This document shows positions 8,490 to 57,010 of a stretch of 64,000 bases of DNA, piece after piece. This DNA is from an uncultured Acidobacteriaceae bacterium (lineage in GTDB: Bacteria; Acidobacteriota; Terriglobia; Terriglobales; Acidobacteriaceae). The position numbers and the translations under genes are program-made. Under the pieces are notes generated by a model that worked only from the letters and a program-made list of their open reading frames with translations, made no database searches and had not been told where the DNA came from. Location: contig CAVYWE010000006.1 in assembly GCA_963772195.1 (NCBI GenBank), positions 39,785 to 103,784 of the forward strand, written 5' to 3'. Position 1 is the stretch's first letter. Each line of letters begins with the position of its first letter.

Positions 8490-8509
8490 GACGGAGTCCT
8501 CCTGCAAAG

Positions 8510-8562
8510 TTGTAGGAGTCATCAGCCGAACGGGCGGTTAACGGCGAACTCCATCGCCAGGG
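8510..8562 (-). promoter_or_regulatory. fluoride riboswitch (crcB RNA motif)
   Basis: Reverse strand reads CCUGGCGAUGGAGUUCGCCGUUAACCGCCCGUUCGGCUGAUGACUCCUACAAC. P1 is GGCG/CGCC, the pseudoknot is GGAGU/ACUCC, and the conserved GCUGAUGA..CCUAC tail is present. It sits directly 5' of crcB. Confidence 0.85.
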
Positions 8563-8632
8563 CATAAGTATAGCGCAGAGTCCGAGCCATCGCGGAGATG
8601 ACTGCGGTGCGAAGTTGGACGCGAGTATGAGG

Positions 8633-10279: not shown

Positions 10280-11293
10280 ATGCCTAGCGTAATCGCTCTG
10301 GACGCGATGGGGTCCGACAAAGCGCCGAAGCCGGAGATCGAAGGCGCATTGCAGGCGGCGCGCCATCACGGCGTCCGCGTGCTTCTGGTCGGCCCGGGAC
10401 CGCGGCTGAAGGCCGACCTGGCGCGCTATCCCGGGGCGCGGCGGCTGCCGGTTGAAGTGGTTCACGCCAGCGAAGTCATCACCATGGACGACAAAGTGGA
10501 GGCGATCCGCGGCAAGCGCGATTCGTCAATCCGCGTAGGACTGCGACTGGTGCGCGAGGGGCGCGCCGCGGGCTTCGTGACGGCGGGCAATACGGGCGCT
10601 GCCATGGCCACGGCCAAAGTGGTGCTGGGCGCGTTGCCCGGCGTGGATCGTCCGGCGCTGGCGGCGGCGTTTCCCACGGTCCTGAACACGGCGGCCATTC
10701 TGCTTGACGTCGGCGCGAACGTGGATTGCACTCCCGTTAACCTGGAGCAGTTCGCGGTGATGGGCGATATTTATTGCCGTTCGATATTCGGCATGAAGCA
10801 TCCGCGAGTGGGCCTGCTTTCGATCGGAGAAGAAGAAAGCAAAGGCAACGACCTGACCCGCGCCGCGTTTAAACTGCTCAAGCGGCTTCCGATCAACTTT
10901 ATTGGCAATGTGGAAGGCCGCGACTTATATAACGGCGATGTGGACGTGATCGTCGCCGACGGATTCGTCGGTAATGTTGCGTTAAAAACTTCTGAGGGCG
11001 TCGCAAGACTGGTGCGCGCCGTGCTGAAAGAAACCTTGAAGTCGACGATTACGCGGCAGGTCGGCGCGTATCTTTCGCGCAATGCGTTTTCCGATTTCAA
11101 AAAGCGCCTGGATCACACCGAGTATGGCGGCGCGCCGCTGTTGGGCATAAAAGGCGTCTGCATCATCACGCACGGATCGTCGAATACCAATGCCATCAAG
11201 AACGCGGTGCGAGTGGCGGCGGAATTTGCCGAAGGCAAAGTGAACCAAACCATCGAGCGGGAGCTGGCAGAACTGAGCGTGGCTGCGACCTAG
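10280..11293 (+). CDS. plsX: phosphate acyltransferase PlsX
   Basis: [32 protein letters not shown] and GAPLLGIKG are PlsX signature blocks. Confidence 0.95.
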
Positions 11294-11402
11294 GAAGTCA
11301 GAGGTCAGAGATCAGATTGCAGAGGTGAAAACCGCGCGATTGCCGATGGTGTTTGCGCGATGGCTTTGACCTCTGCAATCTGACCTCTAACCTCTGACCT
11401 CG
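11292..11402. repeat. intercistronic long hairpin built from tandem 7-nt units (NTCAGAG type)
   Basis: Left arm gaagtcagaggtcagagatcagattgcagaggtgaaa pairs with right arm tttgacctctgcaatctgacctctaacctctgacctc (about 38 bp, few mismatches). Fills the plsX-fabD gap. Confidence 0.75.
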
Positions 11403-11410
11403 TTCCTAAT

Positions 11411-19398: not shown

Positions 19399-19441
19399 TC
19401 TGAACTTTGGACACTGAGCTCTGAACTCTGAACTCTTGAAC
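19399..19441. repeat. TCTGAAC 7-nt tandem repeat
   Basis: tctgaac at 19399, then tctgaac tctgaac tcttgaac at 19420..19441, just upstream of the flgN remnant. Confidence 0.5.
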
Positions 19442-25288: not shown

Positions 25289-26260
25289 TTATCCTTCCCA
25301 AACAAACGCGTCGAACACTCTCGTAGATTCATAGCCGATGCGTTTATAGAGCGCAATAGCGCGGTCGTTGGCTTCCGTCACCGTCAGCGAGATGAAATGG
25401 AATCCCCTGTCCCGGAGATTTCTGGTCGAAGCCGCCAGCATGGCTTCGCCAAGCCCGGCGGAGCGGTGTTCGGGCAGCACGCAGACCTGAGTGATGTGGC
25501 CTACATCGGGACGCACCCGCGAGCAGAGGATCAGGCCGGTCAGGGTTTGAGTGCGGCGCTCCAGAACAACAAAGGATGCCTGGGGATCGAAGGTGCCGCA
25601 TCCGGGGAAGCGCACGATGTTGTTCAAGAAACGCAGCGAGCCGGTGAGGGTGCGGTACTGATCGTTAATTTCGGAATCGACGTGTCCACGGTACGCGGCG
25701 GTGATCAAGGCAGCGGCGGACTGGTATTCCTGCTCCGACCAGGGACGAATTTCAAACTGGGGTGGAAGCGTCGGTAGCGAAGTCTGCGGATGCTTGCCAA
25801 TATCGAAATTCATGAAGACACGGGAATGGCGGCTGAAGCCCTGTTGCAGAAAGGGGCGCGAGACTTCTCCAGTGTGGTGCGCCAGCAACTGCGCCTCCAC
25901 GCGATGGATTCCAGGCGACTGCTGCAGGGTTTCGATGACGTGGGTGAGCAGGCGTTCTTCGACCTCGTGCCGGTCGGGACCACGGGCTCCGTCGCGGGCT
26001 CCGTCGCGGACCGAGTCGCGGACGAAGAGGTCGCCGATGACGCCCTTATTCTGCTCGTACACAAAAAAGGAGTAGCCGAAAATGCTGCCGCGCTCGATGG
26101 CGGCATAACCGGGGAGAATTTTCGCGTCCATGTAGCGCAGGATCATCTCGGCGGAGGTGGCGTAGTCCCAGGAAAGCGCGCGGCCCCACATGGAGATCTC
26201 ATCTTCCAGCAACGGTCGAAGGTCGGCGGAAGAGAAGTGTCGAAGATCGAGAATTTCCAT
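25289..26260 (-). CDS. GNAT-family N-acetyltransferase (two-lobed)
   Basis: C-terminal acetyl-CoA site context VCVLPEHRSAGLGEAMLAAS...LTVTEANDRAIALYKRIGY. The N-terminal half is also GNAT-like. Confidence 0.8.
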   Translation of the reverse strand: MEILDLRHFSSADLRPLLEDEISMWGRALSWDYATSAEMILRYMDAKILPGYAAIERGSIFGYSFFVYEQNKGVIGDLFVRDSVRDGARDGARGPDRHEVEERLLTHVIETLQQSPGIHRVEAQLLAHHTGEVSRPFLQQGFSRHSRVFMNFDIGKHPQTSLPTLPPQFEIRPWSEQEYQSAAALITAAYRGHVDSEINDQYRTLTGSLRFLNNIVRFPGCGTFDPQASFVVLERRTQTLTGLILCSRVRPDVGHITQVCVLPEHRSAGLGEAMLAASTRNLRDRGFHFISLTVTEANDRAIALYKRIGYESTRVFDAFVWEG

Positions 26261-26266
26261 AAAAGA

Positions 26267-26374
26267 AGGTCTTAGGTCTTAGGTCTCAGGAAAAATCCGA
26301 GCGCAAATTCTACTACCAGTTTTAGAGTCTGGCGTCTGGCGCCTGAGACCTGCGACCTGACACCTGAGACCTTT
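26267..26374. repeat. intercistronic long hairpin built from 7-nt units (TCTYAGG type)
   Basis: Left arm aaggtcttaggtcttaggtctcagg. Right arm cctgagacctgcgacctgacacctgagacctt. Lies between the GT39 stop and the GNAT start. Confidence 0.7.
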
Positions 26375-26375
26375 C

Positions 26376-28013
26376 TTATCTTCCCACCCAGTACAACTCC
26401 AACTTCTGTGCCGGAATGCTGGTTAAGTATGACACTCGGCGCCCGGGAACCAGCCGGGCGACTTGGGATTGCGTCCCTTGTGCGGCAACCAGTACATGAT
26501 CTGCAGCCGGGATATTCCCTTCCTCGTATTTTTCTGCCGGACGATTGAGGTAAAACTCCAGACCGTATTCCTGCACACGATTTACGTGGAAGAGGGCGAT
26601 GGGGACCGGTTCGCGCGAAAACGCCTGAATGCTTTCGGCAATGGGGCGCGCGGATTGGGTAGCGTCGATGATGGGCGCGGCGAAACGAATGATGGCGGCT
26701 ACGCTTACGACGACGGCGAACATGGTGACGCGGCTCAGCAAGCGAAGTCCAGCGCGGGACAGGACCGCAGCGGTGACGCCGATCGCAAATACGGCGGCAA
26801 AGACGGCGGCGGAGTAGGTTCTGATTCCCCAGGAAAAGTGGCGATTTATTGCGATGGAAGCGGCGGAAAGAGAAGCGGAAAGAGCGGTAAAAATCAGCAG
26901 TCCGCAGAGAACTCCATGAGCGGCGGCGAACAGAGGCGAAAGCTTTTTGTCGTCACCGCGGCCGGCTTCATTGCGGCGAGCAGAGAGATATTCGACGACC
27001 AGGAGCGCTGCGGCCGGGATGGAAGGCAGAATATAGCCGGGCAGCTTGGATTGCGATGCGCTGAAAAACAGGACGGGCACAAGCATCCAGATGAAAAGAA
27101 ATAACGGCCATGAATCTTCCGGACTGGAGAAAGCCTGTTTGCCTTCTGACCAGATCAGGCGAGCGCGTTCGACCATGGCGAAGATGAGCACGATCGTCCA
27201 TGGCATCATGGCCAGCAAGAACACGGGCAGGTAGAACCAGAAAGGCTGGCGGTGGTGATACAGGTCCTGCGAGAAGCGCGCAAGATTATGTTCGAGGATG
27301 AAGACACGGAAGAATTCCGGGTTGCGCAGTTGGACGGCGATGTACCAGGGCAACATCACGGCGAGGTAGAGGACGATGCCGGGGATCCAGAGAGTGCGCG
27401 GAATGGCACGCCAGTCACGCTTTACAGCGACAAAGAGAAAAATGATGACAGCGGCGAGCGCGGGCGCGACCGGGCCTTTAGCTAAGGTTCCGAGCGCAAG
27501 AAAAATATAGAAAGCGGCGAGATAGACCCGCGTGCGACTTTCGTACCACGCGTACCAGCCGACCAATGCCATGGCGAAAGTGGCGGCGAGCGGCATGTCG
27601 GTCGCAGCGGCACGCGCAAATCCAATGACGGCCGCGCAACTGGCCGTGATGAGGGCGCCGTCGAGTTCGCTGCCTGGTCGAAACCGGCGGAGGAAGAAGT
27701 AGATCGCAGCGATGAGCATGGCGGCATCGAACGCGGCGGGCAGTCGGGCGGCCTGGTCGGTGATGCCGAAGGCACGGAACGCCAGCATCGCCTGCCAGTA
27801 ATAGAGCACCGGCTTTTCAAGCCACGGTTTGCCTTGCAGGGTTGGCGTAACCCAATCCGAGCGGTCCAGCATTTCGCGCGCCACTTGCGCGTAGCGGGGT
27901 TCATCGGCGCCGACCAGGCCGAAGGCCCCGAGGCCATAGAAAAAAAGGAATCCGCAGAACGCCGCGAGCAGCAACAGGTCGGTGCGGGTGCGTGGATTTG
28001 TTCCTTGAGTCAT
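26376..28013 (-). CDS. glycosyltransferase family 39 (ArnT/PMT-like) membrane protein
   Basis: GADEPRYAQVAREMLDRSDWVTPTLQGKPWLEKPVLYYW is the ArnT/PMT_2 N-terminal loop motif. At least 10 TM helices. Confidence 0.85.
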   Translation of the reverse strand: MTQGTNPRTRTDLLLLAAFCGFLFFYGLGAFGLVGADEPRYAQVAREMLDRSDWVTPTLQGKPWLEKPVLYYWQAMLAFRAFGITDQAARLPAAFDAAMLIAAIYFFLRRFRPGSELDGALITASCAAVIGFARAAATDMPLAATFAMALVGWYAWYESRTRVYLAAFYIFLALGTLAKGPVAPALAAVIIFLFVAVKRDWRAIPRTLWIPGIVLYLAVMLPWYIAVQLRNPEFFRVFILEHNLARFSQDLYHHRQPFWFYLPVFLLAMMPWTIVLIFAMVERARLIWSEGKQAFSSPEDSWPLFLFIWMLVPVLFFSASQSKLPGYILPSIPAAALLVVEYLSARRNEAGRGDDKKLSPLFAAAHGVLCGLLIFTALSASLSAASIAINRHFSWGIRTYSAAVFAAVFAIGVTAAVLSRAGLRLLSRVTMFAVVVSVAAIIRFAAPIIDATQSARPIAESIQAFSREPVPIALFHVNRVQEYGLEFYLNRPAEKYEEGNIPAADHVLVAAQGTQSQVARLVPGRRVSYLTSIPAQKLELYWVGR

Positions 28014-28016
28014 TTG

Positions 28017-28097
28017 CCGTTAGTTGGTCGCCAGGACTGCATGCTCGTTTCAGCTTCGCGAACAACTATCGACCAACGACTAACGACCAACGACTGG
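28017..28097. repeat. hairpin with 7-nt tandem units (CGACYAA type)
   Basis: Right arm cgaccaa cgactaa cgaccaa cgactgg. Left arm ccgttagttggtcg pairs with part of it. Lies between the nrnA stop and the GT39 start. Confidence 0.5.
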
Positions 28098-29060: not shown

Positions 29061-29076
29061 GAGGTGCTCTGCTCTC

Positions 29077-29156
29077 GAGTTCTCAGTTCCGGTTCTCAGT
29101 TCTCAGTCAAGAACGCCAAGCACTTACTGAGAACTGAGAACCGAGAACTGAGAACT
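29077..29156. repeat. intercistronic long hairpin built from 7-nt units (CTGAGAA type)
   Basis: gagttctcagttccggttctcagttctcagt / 18-nt loop / actgagaactgagaaccgagaactgagaact. Lies between the rbfA stop and the nrnA start. Confidence 0.8.
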
Positions 29157-29160
29157 ATTT

Positions 29161-29544
29161 TTATGGGCTCGGCTCAGCATCCTTCCGTTTACGTTTTTTG
29201 GCGCGGCCAAGAAGCTCGTCCACCCGGCTCTCCAATTCATCGGCACGATCAATCTGGAAATAAAGTTCCGGAGGCCGCCGCAAACGCAGCCGTTCCGCGA
29301 GTTCATGCCGGACATAGTTCTTGGCCGCGGAAAGCCCTTCGAGCGTCCGCTCCGCCTCGGCCTCATCGCCGGCAACGCTAACCATGATGCGGGCAGAACG
29401 CGCGTCCTGCGCCATAAGCACGGCGCTGACACTGGCCAAGCCAATGCGGGGATCCCGGAGTTCCCCTTCGAGGATAGTTTCAATCTCTTCGCGGATGGCC
29501 TCGCTCAGCCGTCCGCGATGATATTTCTGGCCACGATGCTCCAC
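29161..29544 (-). CDS. rbfA: ribosome-binding factor A
   Basis: RLSEAIREEIETILEGELRDPRIG...VSAVLMAQDARSARIMV...LRLRRPPELYFQID is the RbfA KH-like signature. GTG start. Confidence 0.9.
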   Translation of the reverse strand: MEHRGQKYHRGRLSEAIREEIETILEGELRDPRIGLASVSAVLMAQDARSARIMVSVAGDEAEAERTLEGLSAAKNYVRHELAERLRLRRPPELYFQIDRADELESRVDELLGRAKKRKRKDAEPSP

Positions 29545-30265: not shown

Positions 30266-30469
30266 ATGGCAGAACAAGGAACAGTGAAGTGGTTTAACGA
30301 CGCCAAAGGCTATGGTTTCATCAGCCGTCAAAATGGCGAAGACGTTTTCGTGCATTTCTCCGCTATTCAAGCTGGCGGCTTCAAGAGCCTGCAAGAAGGC
30401 CAAACCGTGCAGTTCGACGTGACCAAGGGCCCAAAAGGCTGGCAAGCGGAGAACGTTACTGCTGTCTAG
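30266..30469 (+). CDS. cspA: cold-shock protein (CspA family)
   Basis: [15 protein letters not shown] (RNP1) and VFVHFSAI (RNP2). 67 aa. Confidence 0.95.
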
Positions 30470-30710: not shown

Positions 30711-33700
30711 TTATGTCCCGTTGCCGGTGACGTTTACCAGTTGCGGACTCCCGCCTCCGTTATCGAAGACGTTGAGTACCGCCTTCTGTCCAGTGCCCAC
30801 CGCTGCCGGCGCGTACTGGACGGTCAGCGTGCAATTTAATCCCGGACCAACCGAGCTACAGGTGTTAGCGGTCACGCTGTAGACCGAGGCGTAAGTGCCC
30901 GTGAACGAGGTTCCGCTCACGGTCAAGGTATTCGACGCGCTGACGTTTTTGACCGTCAGATTCAGCGACTTCGTGTTGCCATGAACCACGTTGCCGAAGC
31001 TCAGACTGGCCGGGCTGAACACTACTTCCGTGCCGACGCCCGTCAGCGGCAACACCAGCGTGCTGTTGTTAGGATCGCCCGTGAAGCTCGCCGTAACCGT
31101 ACCGGGGACCGTGTTAATTGCCGTCGGCGTGAACACCACGTTGAAACTGCAGCTTCCGCCGGCGGCTAACACCGTATTGCCGGTCAGGTTGCAGGGTCCA
31201 GTAACTCCGGTGGTATTTAGACTGTAACTCGCCGATGCCGCCAGGTTGGTTAACGTAAGCGAACCGGTGCCCGAGTATTTGAAGGTAACCTTCGCCGCCT
31301 TGCTGTTGGTATTGAGCAAGGTCGCACCGAAGGTGACCGTCGCGGGCGTGAACGATTCAAAGCTGCTGCCCGTGCCGCTATAGCCCAGCAACAAAGGACT
31401 TGCCGCGTCGTTGCTCTTCACCACCAACGTGCCTTTCTTGACGCCCGGGCTGTGCGGCGTGAAAGTCACGACGATGGTGCACTTCGCCTTGCTGGCCAGC
31501 GCTCCGCCCGTCAGCGGACAGGTGCTGGTGTTGCTGAAGGCATAGTCGGTGGTTTGCGTGAGTGTGATGCCGGAGATGGTCACCGACGCAGATCCCGCGT
31601 TCGTTAAGGTAACCGACTTCGTGGACGAGGTATTCAGCGGTACCGAGCCAAACGCCAGCGTGCCGGTGATCGAAAGCCCCGCGCCCTTGCCTTCCAGCGC
31701 TATCGAACTCACCGTGCCGAAGTAGCCGTTGCTGTTGATGGTCAGCGTGCCGGTGCGGAGCCCGCTGGCCGTGGGTGTGAAGTACACATACACGGTGCAG
31801 TTGGAGCCGTTGGGCAGGCTGCCACTACAGTTGTCGATTTCGCTGAAGTCGCCGGTGGCGGTAATGCTCGAAATCGCCGCCGGTCCAACGCCGCTCAGCG
31901 TAACCGCTTGCGGAGTAGCGGTAGTGCCCACCGGGGAGAGGCCAAAGGCCAGGCTCCCGGTCGAGCGCCCGATTGCGGCAAACGCGTTGACCTCACGCAC
32001 GCGGAAGTTGTATGTGTCCGTGATGAACAGGTTCCCAGTGCCATCGACATATACGCCAAGCGGATAGTACAAGCTGGCGCTGATGGCGGGGCCGCCATCG
32101 CCCGCAAATGCTGGTGTGCCGTTGCCGGCTACCGTAGTCATGGTTCCGCCACCGTCCACCATGCGGATGCGATGGTTGTATTGATCGGCGAAGAACAGGT
32201 TGTCATTCGCGTCAAGCCAGATGCCCCCCGGGTAGTAGACGGAGTTCTGGGTAGCGATGCCATCTCCCGAGAACCCGCCCGCGCCATTGCCGGCCACGGT
32301 AGTGATGTTGCCGGACGCGGCGCTGACTTTGCGAATGCGCTGATTGTTGTAGTCGGCGATGTAGATGTTCCCCGCTGAATCGACCTTCATATCCTGGGGA
32401 GAAGTCAGTTTGGCGCTGGTGGCTGGGCCGCCGTCGCCGCTGTAGCCGGGAGTTTGCGGAGTGCCCGCCACCGTGGTGATGGTGCCGCCACTCACCTTGC
32501 GGATGATGTGGTTGTAGTTGTCGGCAATGTAGAGGTTGTTGCTGGAATCTACCGCCACACCTGCTGGGTAGTAGAGGTTCGCGCTGGTAGCCGGACCGCC
32601 ATCGCCGCCATAGGTACAACTGGAAGGTATTCCCGCCACGGTGCCGATGTTGCCCGCAGTGTCCACCTTGCGGATGATGCAGTTGTACGGGTCCGCGATG
32701 TAGACGTTTCCCGCACTGTCGCGAGCAACGCCTTCCGGGTTGTTGAGTTCCGCCGTGTTGGCGGGGATGCCGTCGCCGTTGTAGCCTCCAGTACCGGTTC
32801 CGGCGAAGATGTTCACCAAGCTGGAGGAGATCACGAGTTCCTGAACCGCGTTATCGCTCTGATTCGCAACGAACATGTTTCCGGAAGGATCTCCGACAAT
32901 GCCCCACGGATAGTTGAGCGTGATGCCGGTGGAAGTGCCGTTGACCAGGGTCGTCTGGTTGGTGCTGCCGTTCCCCGCAACAGTGTTGATGGTCTGGGTG
33001 CTGTCCACCTTGCGCACGCGCTGGTTGTAGGAATCGGCAATGTAGAGGTTGCCCGCCGAGTCCACCGCCGGCGAGACCGGGGCATACAAATAAGCATTGA
33101 TGGCAGGGCAGCCATCGCCAATGCTGTCGGTCTGCCCGGCGCAGCCCCCTCCGCCGCCAGCCACGGTATGGATGCTGCCGCCCACGGTGAACTCGCGGAT
33201 GTAGCCATAGTAGTAGCCGCCATTGTAGCCATCTGCCACCCACACGCTCGTCCCGGCCGAATTTACCGCCACGCCCAAAGGGTTGTACAGCGTCGCGCTG
33301 GTCGCAGGGCCGCCATCGCCGGTGTCCCCAGGAGTGCCGAGGGTTCCCGCGACGGTTTTTACTTTGTCCGTTGCGGCTACTACCTCACGAATAATGAAGT
33401 CGTATGTGTCGGAGATGAAGAGGTCGCCGCTGCTATCCACGGCGATCCCGTTCGGTAGATAAAAACCGCAACTCGTGGCCAGAACTCCGTTGGCGCAGGC
33501 GGTGGCAGTACCGTCTCCCGCTACCGTGGAGATACTGTCGGAGGAGATCACCAGCTTGCGGATGCGGTAGTTGGAGGCGTCCGCGATGAACAGATTCCCG
33601 CTGGAATCGAGCGTGATCTGATTTGGTTGGCAAAGGCTGTGCTGAGTCGCGGGTTTTCCATCACCACCGGCGCCGGTCGTATCGCCGTCGTAGGTACAGG

Positions 33701-34127
33701 AACCCGTACCCGCAATGGTGCTGATAATTCCGCTGGAATTCACCATGCGGATTACCTGGTTGCCGAAATCGGCAATGTATACGTTGCCGGAGCCATCCAC
33801 CGCCACCCCCTCTGGGTTGTAGAGGGTGGCCTGCGTGGCCGGCCCGTTATCGCCGGAATACCCCTGCAGCCCGTTGCCGGCGACGACAGTCAGCGTGCCG
33901 GAAGCGTTCACCTTGAAAACGCGTTGGCTCGTGTAGGGGGCGGAAAAATAGTAGTTGCCCGCGTTGTCGAAGGCCACAAACTGTGGGCCATTGATATCGG
34001 CGTCGAGTGCCGGGACGTTGTTCGGTCCGCCACCGATCAAGGTAGAGATAAAATTTTGCTGGGCCGCCGCCGCGAGGGTCAGGGCCAACACGGTAGAAAT
34101 CAAAAGCAAATTTCGCGAAGCGCGCAT
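30711..34127 (-). CDS. secreted NHL-repeat beta-propeller protein with C-terminal Ig-like (choice-of-anchor-D/ASH-type) domains
   Basis: Signal peptide. About a dozen NHL units (LYNPxGVAVDSxGNLYIADxxNxxIRKV). Then 4-5 repeats of LxFGxV...VTLTNxG...C(T/S)xxVxFxPT. Confidence 0.85.
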   Translation of the reverse strand: MRASRNLLLISTVLALTLAAAAQQNFISTLIGGGPNNVPALDADINGPQFVAFDNAGNYYFSAPYTSQRVFKVNASGTLTVVAGNGLQGYSGDNGPATQATLYNPEGVAVDGSGNVYIADFGNQVIRMVNSSGIISTIAGTGSCTYDGDTTGAGGDGKPATQHSLCQPNQITLDSSGNLFIADASNYRIRKLVISSDSISTVAGDGTATACANGVLATSCGFYLPNGIAVDSSGDLFISDTYDFIIREVVAATDKVKTVAGTLGTPGDTGDGGPATSATLYNPLGVAVNSAGTSVWVADGYNGGYYYGYIREFTVGGSIHTVAGGGGGCAGQTDSIGDGCPAINAYLYAPVSPAVDSAGNLYIADSYNQRVRKVDSTQTINTVAGNGSTNQTTLVNGTSTGITLNYPWGIVGDPSGNMFVANQSDNAVQELVISSSLVNIFAGTGTGGYNGDGIPANTAELNNPEGVARDSAGNVYIADPYNCIIRKVDTAGNIGTVAGIPSSCTYGGDGGPATSANLYYPAGVAVDSSNNLYIADNYNHIIRKVSGGTITTVAGTPQTPGYSGDGGPATSAKLTSPQDMKVDSAGNIYIADYNNQRIRKVSAASGNITTVAGNGAGGFSGDGIATQNSVYYPGGIWLDANDNLFFADQYNHRIRMVDGGGTMTTVAGNGTPAFAGDGGPAISASLYYPLGVYVDGTGNLFITDTYNFRVREVNAFAAIGRSTGSLAFGLSPVGTTATPQAVTLSGVGPAAISSITATGDFSEIDNCSGSLPNGSNCTVYVYFTPTASGLRTGTLTINSNGYFGTVSSIALEGKGAGLSITGTLAFGSVPLNTSSTKSVTLTNAGSASVTISGITLTQTTDYAFSNTSTCPLTGGALASKAKCTIVVTFTPHSPGVKKGTLVVKSNDAASPLLLGYSGTGSSFESFTPATVTFGATLLNTNSKAAKVTFKYSGTGSLTLTNLAASASYSLNTTGVTGPCNLTGNTVLAAGGSCSFNVVFTPTAINTVPGTVTASFTGDPNNSTLVLPLTGVGTEVVFSPASLSFGNVVHGNTKSLNLTVKNVSASNTLTVSGTSFTGTYASVYSVTANTCSSVGPGLNCTLTVQYAPAAVGTGQKAVLNVFDNGGGSPQLVNVTGNGT

Positions 34128-34160
34128 AAGTACTCTCTCCTGGAAGATTGGTCCACCATT

Positions 34161-34234
34161 AGTTCTCGGTTCTCAGTTCTCAGTAAAAGGCTCACGAGTT
34201 CAAACTGAGAACTGAGAACCGGGAACTGAGAACT
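34161..34234. repeat. intercistronic long hairpin built from 7-nt units (CTGAGAA type)
   Basis: agttctcggttctcagttctcagt / loop / actgagaactgagaaccgggaactgagaact. The right arm is 30/31 identical to the element at 29126..29156. Confidence 0.8.
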
Positions 34235-34241
34235 GCCCTAG

Positions 34242-34712
34242 CTAGTTCACCGACTCGGGCAATGCGGGACGGCGGGAGATCTGCACTCCGCGCTCGACCA
34301 CGCCACCGCTGCTGTCGCGGAAGAGCACGACGACTCGAGGGCCGCGGCCACGCATCTCCCACTGCTTGAACTCTTCTTTGGACACGGTGAATTGCTGGTG
34401 AAGAATGACGTCTCGGCCGGCTTTCAGTTGCTTCGGCACCGGGAACGATCCGATGGGCGCGGTGTTAGCCGGCCCCGAGTTCATGAGCGCCACGACCGGG
34501 CTCTGGAGGTCGCCGGCGGAGAAGTTGGAGAGTTGAACCGACATGCGAAGTTGAACTTTGTCGCCCAGATCGGCGACGTTGCTGAGGGCGTAAAAGCCCG
34601 CGAAATCGCGGCCGTCCACGGCAAACGAGGGCAGCGCAAGCGCGAGCACAAGCACGAAGACCGGCAGCAGCAGCAAACCGGTCCGGTGCGAAAAAGCGGG
34701 GATCATAGGCAT
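34242..34712 (-). CDS. small secreted hypothetical protein
   Basis: ATG 34712 is preceded by AAGGAG. Signal peptide MPMIPAFSHRTGLLLLPVFVLVLALALPSFA. 156 aa, no family recognised. The track ORF extension to 34901 (TTG start) reads through the tandem array. Confidence 0.6.
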   Translation of the reverse strand: MPMIPAFSHRTGLLLLPVFVLVLALALPSFAVDGRDFAGFYALSNVADLGDKVQLRMSVQLSNFSAGDLQSPVVALMNSGPANTAPIGSFPVPKQLKAGRDVILHQQFTVSKEEFKQWEMRGRGPRVVVLFRDSSGGVVERGVQISRRPALPESVN

Positions 34713-34723
34713 AACCTCTCCTT

Positions 34724-34911
34724 GAGCGTGCAAAGTGAAACGTAGAGCGTGCAAAGTGAAACGTAGAGCGTGCAAAGTGAAACGTAGAGCGTGCAAAGTG
34801 AAACGCAGAGCGTGCAAAGTGAAACGTGGAGCGTGCAAAGTGAAACGTGGAGCGTGCAAAGTGAAACGTGGAGCGTGCAAAGTGAAACGTAGAGCGTGCA
34901 AGTGAAATGTG
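34724..34911. repeat. 21-bp tandem repeat, 8 full copies plus 1 degenerate copy
   Basis: Unit gagcgtgcaaagtgaaacgta at 34724, 34745, 34766, 34787, 34808, 34829, 34850 and 34871. Variants occur only in the last 3 nt (gta/gca/gtg). A decayed ninth copy starts at 34892. Confidence 0.95.
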
Positions 34912-35498
34912 AAAAATATTGCGACCGCCAGAGCCCCATACCGCTCTGGCTTTCGAGGGGGACCTTAACTTAACAGAACGACAACGGAAGGTAAAGCCCT
35001 TCTCTATTTTTACTATTTGCTCTCGCTAACTCCGTGGAAGGCGCTCGGTATTGCAGGGTGCTGATTCGGAGCAATCTTTCCGGCAGAAATGCGTTCAGGA
35101 AAAGTAACAGGACTGCCAAATCACTTTCAATGGCACAAAAGGTGTAAGGGCGAGAGAAAACTCGGGGAGTCCCCGGATTTGTCCCCGTCATACTTTTTTC
35201 ACGAGTAACACTTGACAAGCCGTCTTATAATAAGAAGTAATAGCAAAATACAGTCGAGACGCGCGCCCTACCCGTCACTTATAACCCCGCGCCAGCCTTG
35301 ACCTATCCGGCAGAGAAGGATACGATCCCACCAACCCATGAAGAATCAAGACTTTAGTTATAACTCTCGTTCTTTCAAGACTTTGCCGCCAGCGCGAACG
35401 CTAAGTCTATGATTCTAATATACCGGTCGATAGGGGGTACCCCACCAAGATTGGTCAGCGAGTAGATCGGCGGGTGGCCGCATACCTAAGAGCCGCCC

Positions 35499-36686
35499 CT
35501 AAACCGGCGTCCTGCCCTTGAACAGCCAGATCAAATCAATGATCAAAATAACCACCACCATCAACTCCAGCACAAACGCCCGGCTCTGATGAAATTGCTC
35601 GACCATGAAGCGGTAGAGCTCTTCGGCAGTGTGGACTTTCTGGTTGACCAGGTTTTTGTAGTCGGTGACGCCGATCTTGGACGCAGCAACTTTGTAGAGA
35701 CGCGCCGAGAACATGTCGCTTAGGAATTTGATGGCGTTGTCGGCGCGCTCGGTCAGTTCGTCCACATCGAGCAGGACGGTGTGCAGGCGGGTGGCGCGTT
35801 TCGCAGTGCGCCAGCGCGCGAGGATGCCGGTCGAACCGCTGTCCATAAAATCGTAGACGCTTTTCAGTTCGCGCGTCAGCAGTTCGTCGTAGTGCCGGAA
35901 TTCGAGGAGCTGCGAGTTGGCGTATTCGAGCAATTGAATGACGGTTTCCGCGCCGGCCGCGGAGTCATAGAGAAACGCTCCGTTCCAGCTGATCACGGCC
36001 AGGTCGTTCGGATAGTACGAGATTCTCGACTGCATGATTTCCTGCTGCTCGCCGTCGGAGAGCGGAACGTTTTCGCCACGCACGATCTGGGCGATGCGTC
36101 CACCCTGGGTCGAGAGCAGTTCAGCCGCCGTCGGATTGCCGGCGATATCGCGCACGTGGAAGACGAAATAATCTTCATGCAGCCAACTGTCGTAAAGCTT
36201 GACCAGCGCGGGCCGGGCGCGCTCGATCTTCTGTTTGACGATCTTCTGGGCGAAGCTGGTGAAATCGGTATCCCAAACCCAGCGGCTGGCAAGACGGACA
36301 AGCGTGTCCCAGTCGCCGGAAAACGGCAGCTCGAAGACCACGCTCAGCACGCCGTAATCGTAGTACTTGATCTGGACGTCAAGCCGTTCGCCGCTTTCAA
36401 GGATCAACGGCTCGACCGGTTCGACGACAGGTGCGCGTTCAAAACGGACGTATCCCGGAGCAGGGTGCTTGAAGCTGGCCTCCTGCCGCCGAGCTCCAAA
36501 GATGTCGCGCAGGGCATCGAGGTTGATCTCCTCGCAGACATCGAACTGGATCAGCACCAGAACCGAGCCCTGCAGCGATTTGTTCTGGGCGATGGCTGCG
36601 GACTGGGCTGACGTTGGGGCTGGAACGGGGACTGGGGTTGATACGACTGGGGTTGATAGTATGACGGTTGAGTTTGCGGTTTCCAT
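35499..36686 (-). CDS. hypothetical protein with C-terminal TM helix, possibly RMD1/DUF155-like
   Basis: 395 aa. The C-terminal pattern NQKVHTAEELYRFMVEQFHQSRAFVLELMVVVILIIDLIW resembles the DUF155/RMD1 tail. The family assignment is from memory only. Confidence 0.45.
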   Translation of the reverse strand: METANSTVILSTPVVSTPVPVPAPTSAQSAAIAQNKSLQGSVLVLIQFDVCEEINLDALRDIFGARRQEASFKHPAPGYVRFERAPVVEPVEPLILESGERLDVQIKYYDYGVLSVVFELPFSGDWDTLVRLASRWVWDTDFTSFAQKIVKQKIERARPALVKLYDSWLHEDYFVFHVRDIAGNPTAAELLSTQGGRIAQIVRGENVPLSDGEQQEIMQSRISYYPNDLAVISWNGAFLYDSAAGAETVIQLLEYANSQLLEFRHYDELLTRELKSVYDFMDSGSTGILARWRTAKRATRLHTVLLDVDELTERADNAIKFLSDMFSARLYKVAASKIGVTDYKNLVNQKVHTAEELYRFMVEQFHQSRAFVLELMVVVILIIDLIWLFKGRTPV

Positions 36687-55456: not shown

Positions 55457-55533
55457 GGTTTCAGGTGTCAGGTCTCAGGTGTCAGGAAAACCAAAGACGG
55501 CTCCTTTGTTCCTGACACGCGGGACCTGAGACC
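55457..55533. repeat. intercistronic long hairpin built from 7-nt units (TNTCAGG type)
   Basis: ggtttcaggtgtcaggtctcaggtgtcagg / loop / cctgacacgcgggacctgagacc. Lies between the FAD-oxidoreductase stop and the CMD-gene start. Confidence 0.75.
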
Positions 55534-56846: not shown

Positions 56847-56961
56847 AACCTTGACCACAGGGAGCACAGGGGTACACAGGGGTACACAAGGGAACACAGA
56901 GGAATTCCTAGGTGTCCTCTGTGCGCCTCTGTGTTCCTCTGCGTCCCCTGTGGTTAGGGTT
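56847..56961. repeat. intercistronic long hairpin built from ~10-nt units (CACAGGGGTA type)
   Basis: ccacagggagcacaggggtacacaggggtacacaagggaacacagagg pairs with cctctgtgcgcctctgtgttcctctgcgtcccctgtgg around a gaattcctagg centre. Confidence 0.8.
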
Positions 56962-57010
56962 CTTTTCCGCGCGGCCATGATAAATGATTCGGTTGCTAAT
57001 CGTGCCGCGG

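Follow-up and report, generated by a model that had tools for sequence, protein, structure and literature searches.

What is a tandem array of eight 21-bp units doing in the leader of a small secreted-protein gene of an uncultured soil bacterium? The array lies in a 64,000-nucleotide stretch of DNA (hereafter the window, 64 kb) from an uncultured Acidobacteriaceae bacterium of the order Terriglobales (contig CAVYWE010000006.1 of assembly GCA_963772195.1), directly before a minus-strand gene for a 156-aa protein that is itself followed by a gene for a large NHL-repeat protein. An earlier note, made from the DNA letters alone, had offered three options for the array: an iterated regulator-binding site, a copy-number switch of the phase or variable-number tandem repeat (VNTR) type, and a repetitive 5' untranslated region (UTR) that titrates an RNA-binding protein. 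By following the locus through its relatives, we find that the feature is almost certainly a lineage-specific, locus-specific, hypervariable and non-coding minisatellite, that is, a VNTR. The best explanation that we can offer for the whole goes further, in that the copy number of this 5'-leader minisatellite would shift expression quantitatively at the RNA level; we consider this fuller account evenly poised between being right and being wrong.

Eight units abut the Shine-Dalgarno sequence

The array consists of eight contiguous head-to-tail 21-bp units at window positions 34724-34891 (+ strand unit GAGCGTGCAAAGTGAAACGTA). Tandem Repeats Finder (TRF) reports it at 34724-34907 with a period of 21, 8.8 copies, 96% matches and a score of 333, by far the strongest row in the 64 kb, the runner-up scoring 61, below one fifth of that value. 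A search of the window for the 21-mer with up to 3 mismatches returned exactly 8 sites, and none in 100 dinucleotide-preserving shuffles. Both analyses bear out the earlier description of eight tandem units in the secreted-protein gene's leader and ahead of the NHL gene; calling the array perfect was slightly generous, as 4/8 units carry one substitution each. The variation is confined, as had been claimed, to the last 3 nt of the unit (+ strand GTA in four units, GCA in one and GTG in three), the sense-strand endings reading TAC, CAC, CAC, CAC, TGC, TAC, TAC, TAC from the distal to the proximal unit. The heptads GTTTCAC and TTTGCAC, which resemble each other, occur in each unit.

The proximal end of the array, 34724, lies 12 nt upstream of the A of ATG 34712, again as first stated, and the 11 nt between them, AAGGAGAGGTT, comprise the Shine-Dalgarno sequence and a 2-nt spacer (TT). 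At the distal end a ninth copy of 20 nt follows at 34892-34911 (sense cacatttcacttgcacgctc). With spacer-less head-to-tail units of well over the ~10 bp that mark a minisatellite or VNTR, the array belongs to that class; a CRISPR array is rejected, in agreement with the earlier note, since the units are contiguous and without unique spacers. Nor is the array an assembly artefact, which had been named as a finding that would dispose of it: it is reproduced at the same place in five independent assemblies from different samples, those of L010, L034, L076 and L078 among them (L numbers denote the loci of relatives throughout).

Alleles of the array in relatives

Relatives were collected via the small protein and via one metagenome scan with a degenerate form of the unit. 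At the position of the array, L002, L003, L004, L006, L007 and L036 carry a single segment and no array (in L002, ...cttcacattccaactgcactctcAAGGAAAAGTCATG; in L007, whose small gene has 91-92% nucleotide identity to that of the window, ...gcattccacttgcacgctcAAGGAGAAGTCATG), and this segment is homologous to the ninth copy of the window. Because array-less relatives carry just this segment, the ninth copy, which had been correctly located and described as decayed, is by this comparison the ancestral template of the array. On the same grounds, the array itself arose when the ~20 nt that separate a conserved leader hairpin from the Shine-Dalgarno sequence were amplified in tandem.

The alleles that do carry an array (Table 1) differ among close relatives in unit number (1, 4, 6, 7, 8, counting the single-copy state), unit length (20, 21, 22 bp), sequence and variant order. 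The units are lineage-specific, being 21 bp with TTTGCAC, 20 bp with TTGACTTGCAC, 22 bp with CACCTTTG or 21 bp with TTAGCAC, and they are homogenised within arrays and diverged between lineages, the pattern of concerted evolution. The window, L034/L077, L078, L010/L075 and L076 alleles encode an identical 156-aa protein, and 13.9 kb of L010 align with the window at 98.15% identity. Copy number is accordingly strain-variable at one locus in what are mostly short-read assemblies, and among the options of the earlier note the VNTR is the one with direct evidence: 6, 7 or 8 units beside an identical protein, 4, 6 and at least 4 in relatives, and 1 in the sister group. The other half of that option fares less well, an ON/OFF phase switch being unlikely because the array lies outside the coding sequence (CDS) and no promoter with a -35/-10 spacer for it was found.

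Table 1. Alleles that carry the array, with the number and type of their units.
Allele	Units	Unit length and variants
Window	8	21 bp each
L034 / L077	7	variant order as in the window, minus one TAC
L078	6	minus one CAC and one TAC
L010 / L075 and L076	8	other variant order; one unit with GCACACTC substitution
L021	4	21, 21, 22, 22 bp
L035	6	21 bp, TTAGCAC / TTATCAC type
L001	at least 4	20, 20, 20, 21 bp; contig ends within the array

A neighbour-joining tree of the small gene places the array alleles in one clade that includes the single-copy L007, with the single-copy L002-L006 as its sister group and L036 outside. The simplest history compatible with this tree is one amplification followed by continued expansion, contraction and homogenisation, with at least one collapse to a single copy. 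Judging from the alleles, turnover is ongoing, and it would proceed via slipped-strand mispairing or unequal recombination.

Probable place of the array in the transcript

Homology to relatives with other upstream genes begins ~215 nt ahead of the ancestral Shine-Dalgarno sequence; a terminator-like hairpin at 35175-35163 stands just upstream of this start, which coincides with a candidate promoter (Table 2). A consensus promoter scan found none within the array, and we found no promoter whose -35/-10 spacer the array could occupy. Given that its units cannot be combined into a sigma-70-like promoter and that it directly adjoins the Shine-Dalgarno sequence, the array most probably belongs to a long transcribed 5' UTR, whose length is likely ~215 nt in array-less alleles and ~380 nt in the window. 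The earlier placement of the array in a promoter is therefore doubtful, as any promoter not made of the units themselves must lie upstream of it. By the same geometry we rejected a simple-sequence contingency locus, with a 1-9-nt unit in a CDS or in a -35/-10 spacer: here the units measure 20-22 nt and stand outside the CDS, beside the Shine-Dalgarno sequence.

Three further observations concern the leader and its surroundings. Perfect TTGACA and TATAAT hexamers occur on the + strand at 35213-35231, only 8 nt apart, in an AT-rich intergenic patch that is not conserved in L002. A perfect palindrome and candidate operator, TCACCCGTTCGGGTGA, is common to L036 (~2795-2815) and L005 (~1620-1645) about 170 nt upstream of the ATG; the window leader lacks it. 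In the single-copy allele of L007, a truncated IS110-family transposase fragment (MEASGHARWFERVL... KTDRRDAELILKLM; L007 1-480) stands in for the leader ahead of 'agaaaggactttacc', ~130 nt from the ATG.

Table 2. Features of the locus in the window, from the distal leader to the NHL gene.
Feature	Position	Strand	Basis
Weak candidate promoter, TTGAAA (35130-35125), 18-nt spacer, TACTTT (35106-35101)	leader block	-	read from sequence; failed consensus scan
Conserved leader block; homology to relatives with other upstream genes starts ~35140	34912..35140	-	sequence, relatives
Leader hairpin CCAGAGC-loop-GCTCTGG, a short way upstream of the ancestral copy	34928..34949	-	conserved in L002, L007, L021, L035, L036
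Ancestral template copy, sense cacatttcacttgcacgctc, 20 nt	34892..34911	-	sole copy in array-less relatives
Minisatellite, eight 21-bp units, sense YRCGTTTCACTTTGCACGCTC	34724..34891	-	sequence, TRF, 21-mer search, relatives
Shine-Dalgarno sequence AAGGAGAGG, abuts the proximal unit	34715..34723	-	read from sequence; AAGGAG/AAGGAA kept in relatives
Gene for 156-aa secreted protein without Pfam match; Ig-like beta-sandwich (predicted); signal peptide followed by conserved DGRDFAGFY motif	34242..34712	-	homologues, AlphaFold, Foldseek
Long intercistronic hairpin of GTTCTCA / TGAGAAC heptamers in inverted arrays, separating the small and NHL genes	34150..34245	-	TRF, folding -48 kcal/mol; conserved in L001 and L002
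NHL-repeat / ASH-Ig protein, 1138 aa, conserved downstream partner	30711..34127	-	domain annotation; synteny in GTDB loci

The array as RNA and the case for expression tuning

As RNA, the array would form an unstructured pyrimidine-rich tract with C well above G. Its sense strand is 71% pyrimidine with a C/G ratio of 2.36, and it is the most extreme 168-nt stretch for composition on either strand of the 64 kb, equal stretches overlapping the array itself. Its minimum free energy of -34.2 kcal/mol compares with -42.4 +/- 4.4 kcal/mol for shuffled sequence (z = +1.88), 198/200 shuffles folding at least as well, and the 411-nt leader as a whole gives z = +3.17 against shuffles; a structured RNA is rejected, since shuffled sequence folds better than the array. 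The textbook loading site of Rho (rut, Rho utilization) is a long untranslated tract that lacks structure and has C above G, and the array has the corresponding composition, i.e., at least 70-80 nt of unstructured RNA with C > G. Pyrimidine-rich single-stranded leaders also bind ribosomal protein S1, serve as ribosome standby sites and bind cold-shock-domain proteins, as has been discussed for heptamer repeats (PMC4679880).

With such a leader, unit number may shift the expression of the downstream gene(s) quantitatively at the RNA level, as in the 5'-UTR repeats of clbR and uspA2. Candidate routes would be Rho loading through the rut-like composition, binding of S1 or of a standby ribosome, and altered mRNA stability; these predict opposite signs of effect, and we make no choice among them. 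Titration of an RNA-binding protein by the array, the third option of the earlier note, is likewise possible. On a real effect of the array on expression, taken by itself, we lean narrowly towards doubt. Unlikely, in our estimate, is the more ambitious proposal that the array is a selected 'rheostat' for a conserved acidobacterial surface or secreted gene pair, a minisatellite-scale contingency locus in a free-living soil bacterium, in which unit number would set the loading of Rho, S1 or a cold-shock-domain protein on the C-rich leader and hence the amount of the small and NHL/ASH proteins. Under this rheostat proposal, fluctuating selection on properties of the cell surface would account for the frequent gain and loss of units and for the repeated inactivation of the NHL gene.

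A consensus fold of the array-stripped leaders of 7 alleles contained a possible pairing of an anti-Shine-Dalgarno (ACCUUCC) with the Shine-Dalgarno sequence, with compensatory changes in 0/33 pairs, and we build nothing on this pairing. A role of the array as a spacer, releasing the Shine-Dalgarno sequence from such a leader anti-Shine-Dalgarno, was rejected, partition-function modelling with 0-8 units and three leader lengths having shown no trend.

The fate of the NHL partner in array-bearing strains bears on selection at the locus. A frame-shifting 1-nt deletion, GGGCGTGG -> GGGC-TGG (L075/L076 ~2650-2680, corresponding to window ~33290), is common to the NHL genes of L010 and L076, which come from two independent samples; the NHL gene of L001 has an in-frame stop at 2546-2548. 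In L034 the gene encodes a 675-aa version and from 1254 onward, after ~370 nt of the gene, has no DNA similarity to the window. These disruptions suggest relaxed or diversifying selection or, for L034, a chimeric assembly.

Several points weigh against an array that tunes expression. The extreme composition merely multiplies one 21-mer and need not have been selected. The candidate promoter from which the array would be transcribed is weak, its -10 hexamer matching at 3/6 positions and the consensus scan not being passed. Under equilibrium folding, the energy needed to open the Shine-Dalgarno sequence stays within ~1.5 kcal/mol from 0 to 8 units in three leader models. With the single-copy L007 inside the array clade and single-copy lineages as its sister group, the gene evidently works without an array. 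The disruption of the NHL gene in L010, L076 and L001 fits relaxed constraint as well as adaptive variation. Finally, most allele contigs come from short-read metagenome assemblies, which can collapse tandem repeats, so that single counts need long-read confirmation.

Many of these points are at home in a close rival, a neutral minisatellite, i.e., a tolerated by-product of replication slippage or unequal recombination at a place where spacer length is irrelevant, with a copy number that is a strain marker only. Neutrality would accommodate the drift of period, unit sequence and copy number alike, the single-copy alleles both beside and within the array clade, a modelled Shine-Dalgarno accessibility independent of copy number, the disrupted NHL partner in two array-bearing lineages, and a genome that is generally rich in intergenic tandem and inverted repeats. 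It is also consistent with the ancestral segment, which is about as diverged as the remaining leader and no better conserved. What neutrality explains less readily is that the array persists, homogenising, in lineages that are up to ~8% diverged in the small gene, with surrounding aligned DNA down to 83.5% identity, and that it sits directly at the ribosome-binding site, where the addition of 84-168 nt of unstructured C-rich RNA has had a measurable effect in every comparable tested case (PMC7364221; uspA2 as cited in PMC4679880). We regard neutrality as a possible account that nevertheless falls short of being the probable one.

DNA operators, promoters and coding repeats as alternatives

If each unit were instead a DNA operator binding a transcription factor on one helix face, the array would be a roadblock or an activator platform for the operon. 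Direct repeats of ~21 bp do resemble iteron-type or response-regulator-type site arrays, and the two similar heptads of each unit, GTTTCAC and TTTGCAC, would suit such sites. The helical phasing on which the earlier note had built, 21 bp being two turns, is however not kept, as homologous units measure 20 bp in L001 and 22 bp in L021. The site also touches the Shine-Dalgarno sequence, with any plausible promoter upstream of it, conservation of the ancestral copy is poor in L002 and L036, and we found no regulator gene as a conserved neighbour of the locus in the window or in relatives.

An operator used elsewhere should recur, and a search for the unit in the rest of the genome and in relatives had been proposed. 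A 19-mer of the unit had 0 matches in GTDB genomes, a degenerate 20-mer had 0 in viral contigs, and the window held no other copy, its remainder containing 3 weak matches to the 14-nt core where chance alone predicts 5.1. In metagenomes every multi-copy match was this one locus, and the single matches came from ~10 independent loci, a number of the order that chance would give. One of these is a homologous CDS (MSMEDSLIDAALRGWKSNVERADKLF...) in 13 metagenome contigs (L009, L011, L013, L015, L016, L019, L020, L023, L024, L026, L029, L031, L033) that holds the exact L001-type 20-mer GCACGCTCTACGTTTGACTT on its opposite strand; given the ~10 independent single matches overall, we counted it as one event and judged it coincidental. 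The iterated binding site proposed earlier is unsupported, given these searches, a single copy that is not extra-conserved and the lack of an adjoining regulator gene, and a DNA operator is in our view improbable.

The same searches leave a regulon operator motif unsupported, and they speak against a dispersed family of the type of mycobacterial interspersed repetitive units (MIRU) or repetitive extragenic palindromes (REP), there being no further copy in the 64-kb window and no multi-copy metagenome match away from this locus. Iterons or another regulator-site array were also rejected, with no Rep or regulator gene nearby, a motif that is not reused and a period of 20, 21 or 22 bp. Rfam gave no match for 34650-35520 at the gathering threshold or even at E <= 10; with this result, and with no copy in GTDB genomes or viral contigs, the claim that no described element has this unit stands. 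Recurrent leader arrays in distant homologues of the small gene were rejected as a general pattern, L063 being the only clear case and tandem repeats in 39 GTDB loci not being clearly enriched beyond the expectation for non-coding DNA. In L063, an Acidobacteriaceae metagenome-assembled genome (MAG; OY970281.1) whose small-gene homologue has 36% identity, an unrelated leader array of 5.5 copies of a 17-bp unit (TTCAGACCCCAAGTAGT) at 2809-2899 begins ~20 nt past a -10-like hexamer, TATACT, and stops ~100 nt short of the ATG; it may be an independent leader minisatellite in the same gene cassette.

Still less probable, and indeed hardly to be expected, is that the units carry promoter elements, which would make the array a stack of start sites with a very short leader. 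TACGTT in the units fits the TAnnnT pattern of a -10 element, with the last unit starting transcription ~20 nt before the ATG, and the L001 units contain TTGACT, a 5/6 match to the -35 consensus. Yet no -35-like hexamer stands 16-18 nt upstream of any TACGTT, the available spacings being 4, 11 or 25 nt; half of the units have CACGTT or TGCGTT, without the TA of a -10; the consensus scan finds no promoter in the array; and no geometry for sigma-54 or extracytoplasmic function (ECF) sigma factors was seen by eye. In-unit promoters of the sigma-70, extended -10, sigma-54 and ECF sigma types were accordingly rejected for want of a workable hexamer spacing. A repeat that encodes an in-frame heptapeptide, (LHALRFT)n, as an N-terminal extension from TTG 34901 (the minus-strand ORF 34242-34901 is open and in frame with the gene and, as first noted, the unit has no stop codon in any sense frame) is, together with an assembly artefact, effectively refuted by the 20- and 22-bp units of L001 and L021, which would break the frame, and by the independent assemblies, quite apart from the strong Shine-Dalgarno sequence and ATG after the array, at which 16/16 homologues start, and from the senselessness of a repeat ahead of a signal peptide.

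Comparison with known repeat systems

Tandem repeats that vary between strains in bacterial leader regions are known, and the array is of this kind; nothing that we found suggests a categorically new mechanism. The mycobacterial minisatellites used for strain typing (MIRU-VNTR and multiple-locus VNTR analysis, MLVA) are intergenic, have units of tens of bp and vary between strains by slippage or recombination. The array resembles them in its intergenic position and strain-variable copy number; unlike MIRUs, which are dispersed at ~40 loci with units of 40-100 bp, its unit is confined to one locus as far as searched. With plasmid iterons and centromere-like arrays it shares direct repeats of ~20 bp in arrays of 4 to 8, and it differs from them in its chromosomal context, in its variable period, in abutting a ribosome-binding site and in having no rep or par gene or origin features nearby.

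A closer parallel is the 8-bp VNTR of clbR in the colibactin (pks) island of E. coli, which lies in the 5' UTR downstream of a mapped transcription start site and varies between 2 and 20 copies among strains, 5 versus 19-20 copies giving a ~2-fold change in expression (PMC7364221). Both are spacer-less tandem repeats that separate the promoter (here a candidate only) from the start codon of a unit's first gene, and both vary in copy number among strains, 2-20 in clbR and 1 and 4-8 here. The two differ in unit length (8 bp there, 20-22 bp here), in the downstream genes (a regulator there, secreted or surface proteins here), in the host (a host-associated enterobacterium there, an uncultured soil Acidobacterium here) and in the start site and the expression effect, which were measured there and are proposed here. 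The AGAT repeat of uspA2 in Moraxella catarrhalis, as cited in PMC4679880, is likewise a 5'-UTR repeat, with 6-23 copies and a quantitative effect of copy number on a surface-protein gene; the array shares with it the position of a strain-variable repeat ahead of a surface or secreted-protein gene, the expression effect being known for uspA2. As cited in the same source, uspA2 and related simple-sequence contingency loci have units of 1-7 nt, and many such loci act as ON/OFF switches via the reading frame or the -35/-10 spacing, a geometry different from that of the array.

Direct repeats of the heptamer TAACTGA in Beggiatoaceae and Cyanobacteria also stand immediately upstream of start codons, and a role in translation has been proposed for them via S1 or cold-shock-domain proteins on pyrimidine-rich heptamers; they occur at >=169 loci genome-wide, with 7-nt units that often replace the Shine-Dalgarno sequence (PMC4679880). 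The array resembles them in its position, and its 21-mer can be read as three pyrimidine-rich heptads; unlike them, it is a single-locus array of 21-nt units beside a strong Shine-Dalgarno sequence that is kept.

What is new in the array is its unit, which is not described anywhere that we searched, its host, an uncultured Terriglobales bacterium, and its unit length of 20-22 nt as against 1-8 nt in the expression-tuning repeats that have been studied. To our knowledge, repeat-mediated expression variation has been studied almost only in host-adapted pathogens and with 1-8-nt units. If the array does tune expression, such variation would extend to 20-22-nt units and to an abundant uncultured soil lineage, the Terriglobales, and the pair of small and NHL/ASH proteins would mark a locus under fluctuating selection; if it is neutral, it adds one more bacterial minisatellite. 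In either case it can serve as a strain marker, distinguishing strains with an identical small protein by 6, 7 or 8 copies, and it is a spot where short-read assemblies break or collapse, as in L001, whose contig ends inside it.

The small secreted protein and its NHL partner

The small gene is real: the protein collection contains 16 homologues of its product, whose N-terminus resembles a signal peptide and whose predicted fold is a beta-sandwich. No Pfam match was found for this product. All 16 homologues (16/16) begin at the equivalent ATG after a Shine-Dalgarno sequence, and all of them have the DGRDFAGFY motif just past the signal peptide. The AlphaFold model is a beta-sandwich with a predicted local distance difference test score (pLDDT) of 79.7, for which Foldseek returned merely a generic Ig-like or fibronectin type III (FnIII)-like resemblance, with a TM-score of up to 0.41. 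Tandem repeats of 12 bp occur inside the coding region of the small protein in a Bryobacterales and an Acidobacteriaceae MAG (L057 3046-3080 and L070 3053-3109); they map to a loop just past the DGRDFAGFY motif, which is an insertion site in other homologues.

In loci from GTDB genomes the small gene precedes the NHL/ASH gene in 39/39 cases, and 38/39 of these loci are from Acidobacteriota (Terriglobales, Bryobacterales, Acidobacteriaceae, Ca. Sulfotelmatobacter), the exception being a Candidatus Binatus MAG. The nearest genome representative, the Terriglobales MAG L036, shows 88% amino-acid identity. Because a hairpin of -48 kcal/mol separates both genes, their co-transcription is plausible but not certain. 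The context of the locus is chromosomal, with cytochrome oxidase and FAD-oxidase genes adjoining. A gene for a cold-shock-domain protein (PF00313, E = 7e-30) at 30266-30469 on the + strand is convergent to the NHL gene, ~240 nt past its end, and is a neighbour in L005 too.

Other elements in the window

The intercistronic hairpin belongs to a family of long, near-perfect intergenic hairpins of -48 to -72 kcal/mol, in each of which a tandem heptamer array faces its own inverted array, e.g., (AGTTCTC)n ... (GAGAACT)n. Such sites lie at 11290-11410, 26260-26380, 29065-29165 and 34150-34245, with further ones at 19399-19441, 28061-28095 and 55457-55486, and the heptamer GTTCTCA is common to the hairpins at 29073-29156 and 34161-34235. 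The hairpin between the small gene and the NHL gene, kept in two relatives (Table 2), is not conserved in L005 or L036. These elements may be REP-like or short tandemly repeated repetitive (STRR)-like terminators or mRNA stabilisers, and their unit GAACTGA is one base off the TAACTGA heptamer of Beggiatoaceae and Cyanobacteria (PMC4679880). Another inverted tandem-array hairpin, with units of ~10 bp, in which five copies of CACAGGGGNA face 2.6 copies of CCTCTGTGCG, occupies 56856-56941, just upstream of an ORF starting at 56984. The sole Rfam match in the window is a fluoride riboswitch (crcB motif, RF01734; 61.8 bits, E = 1e-14) at 8506-8567 on the - strand.

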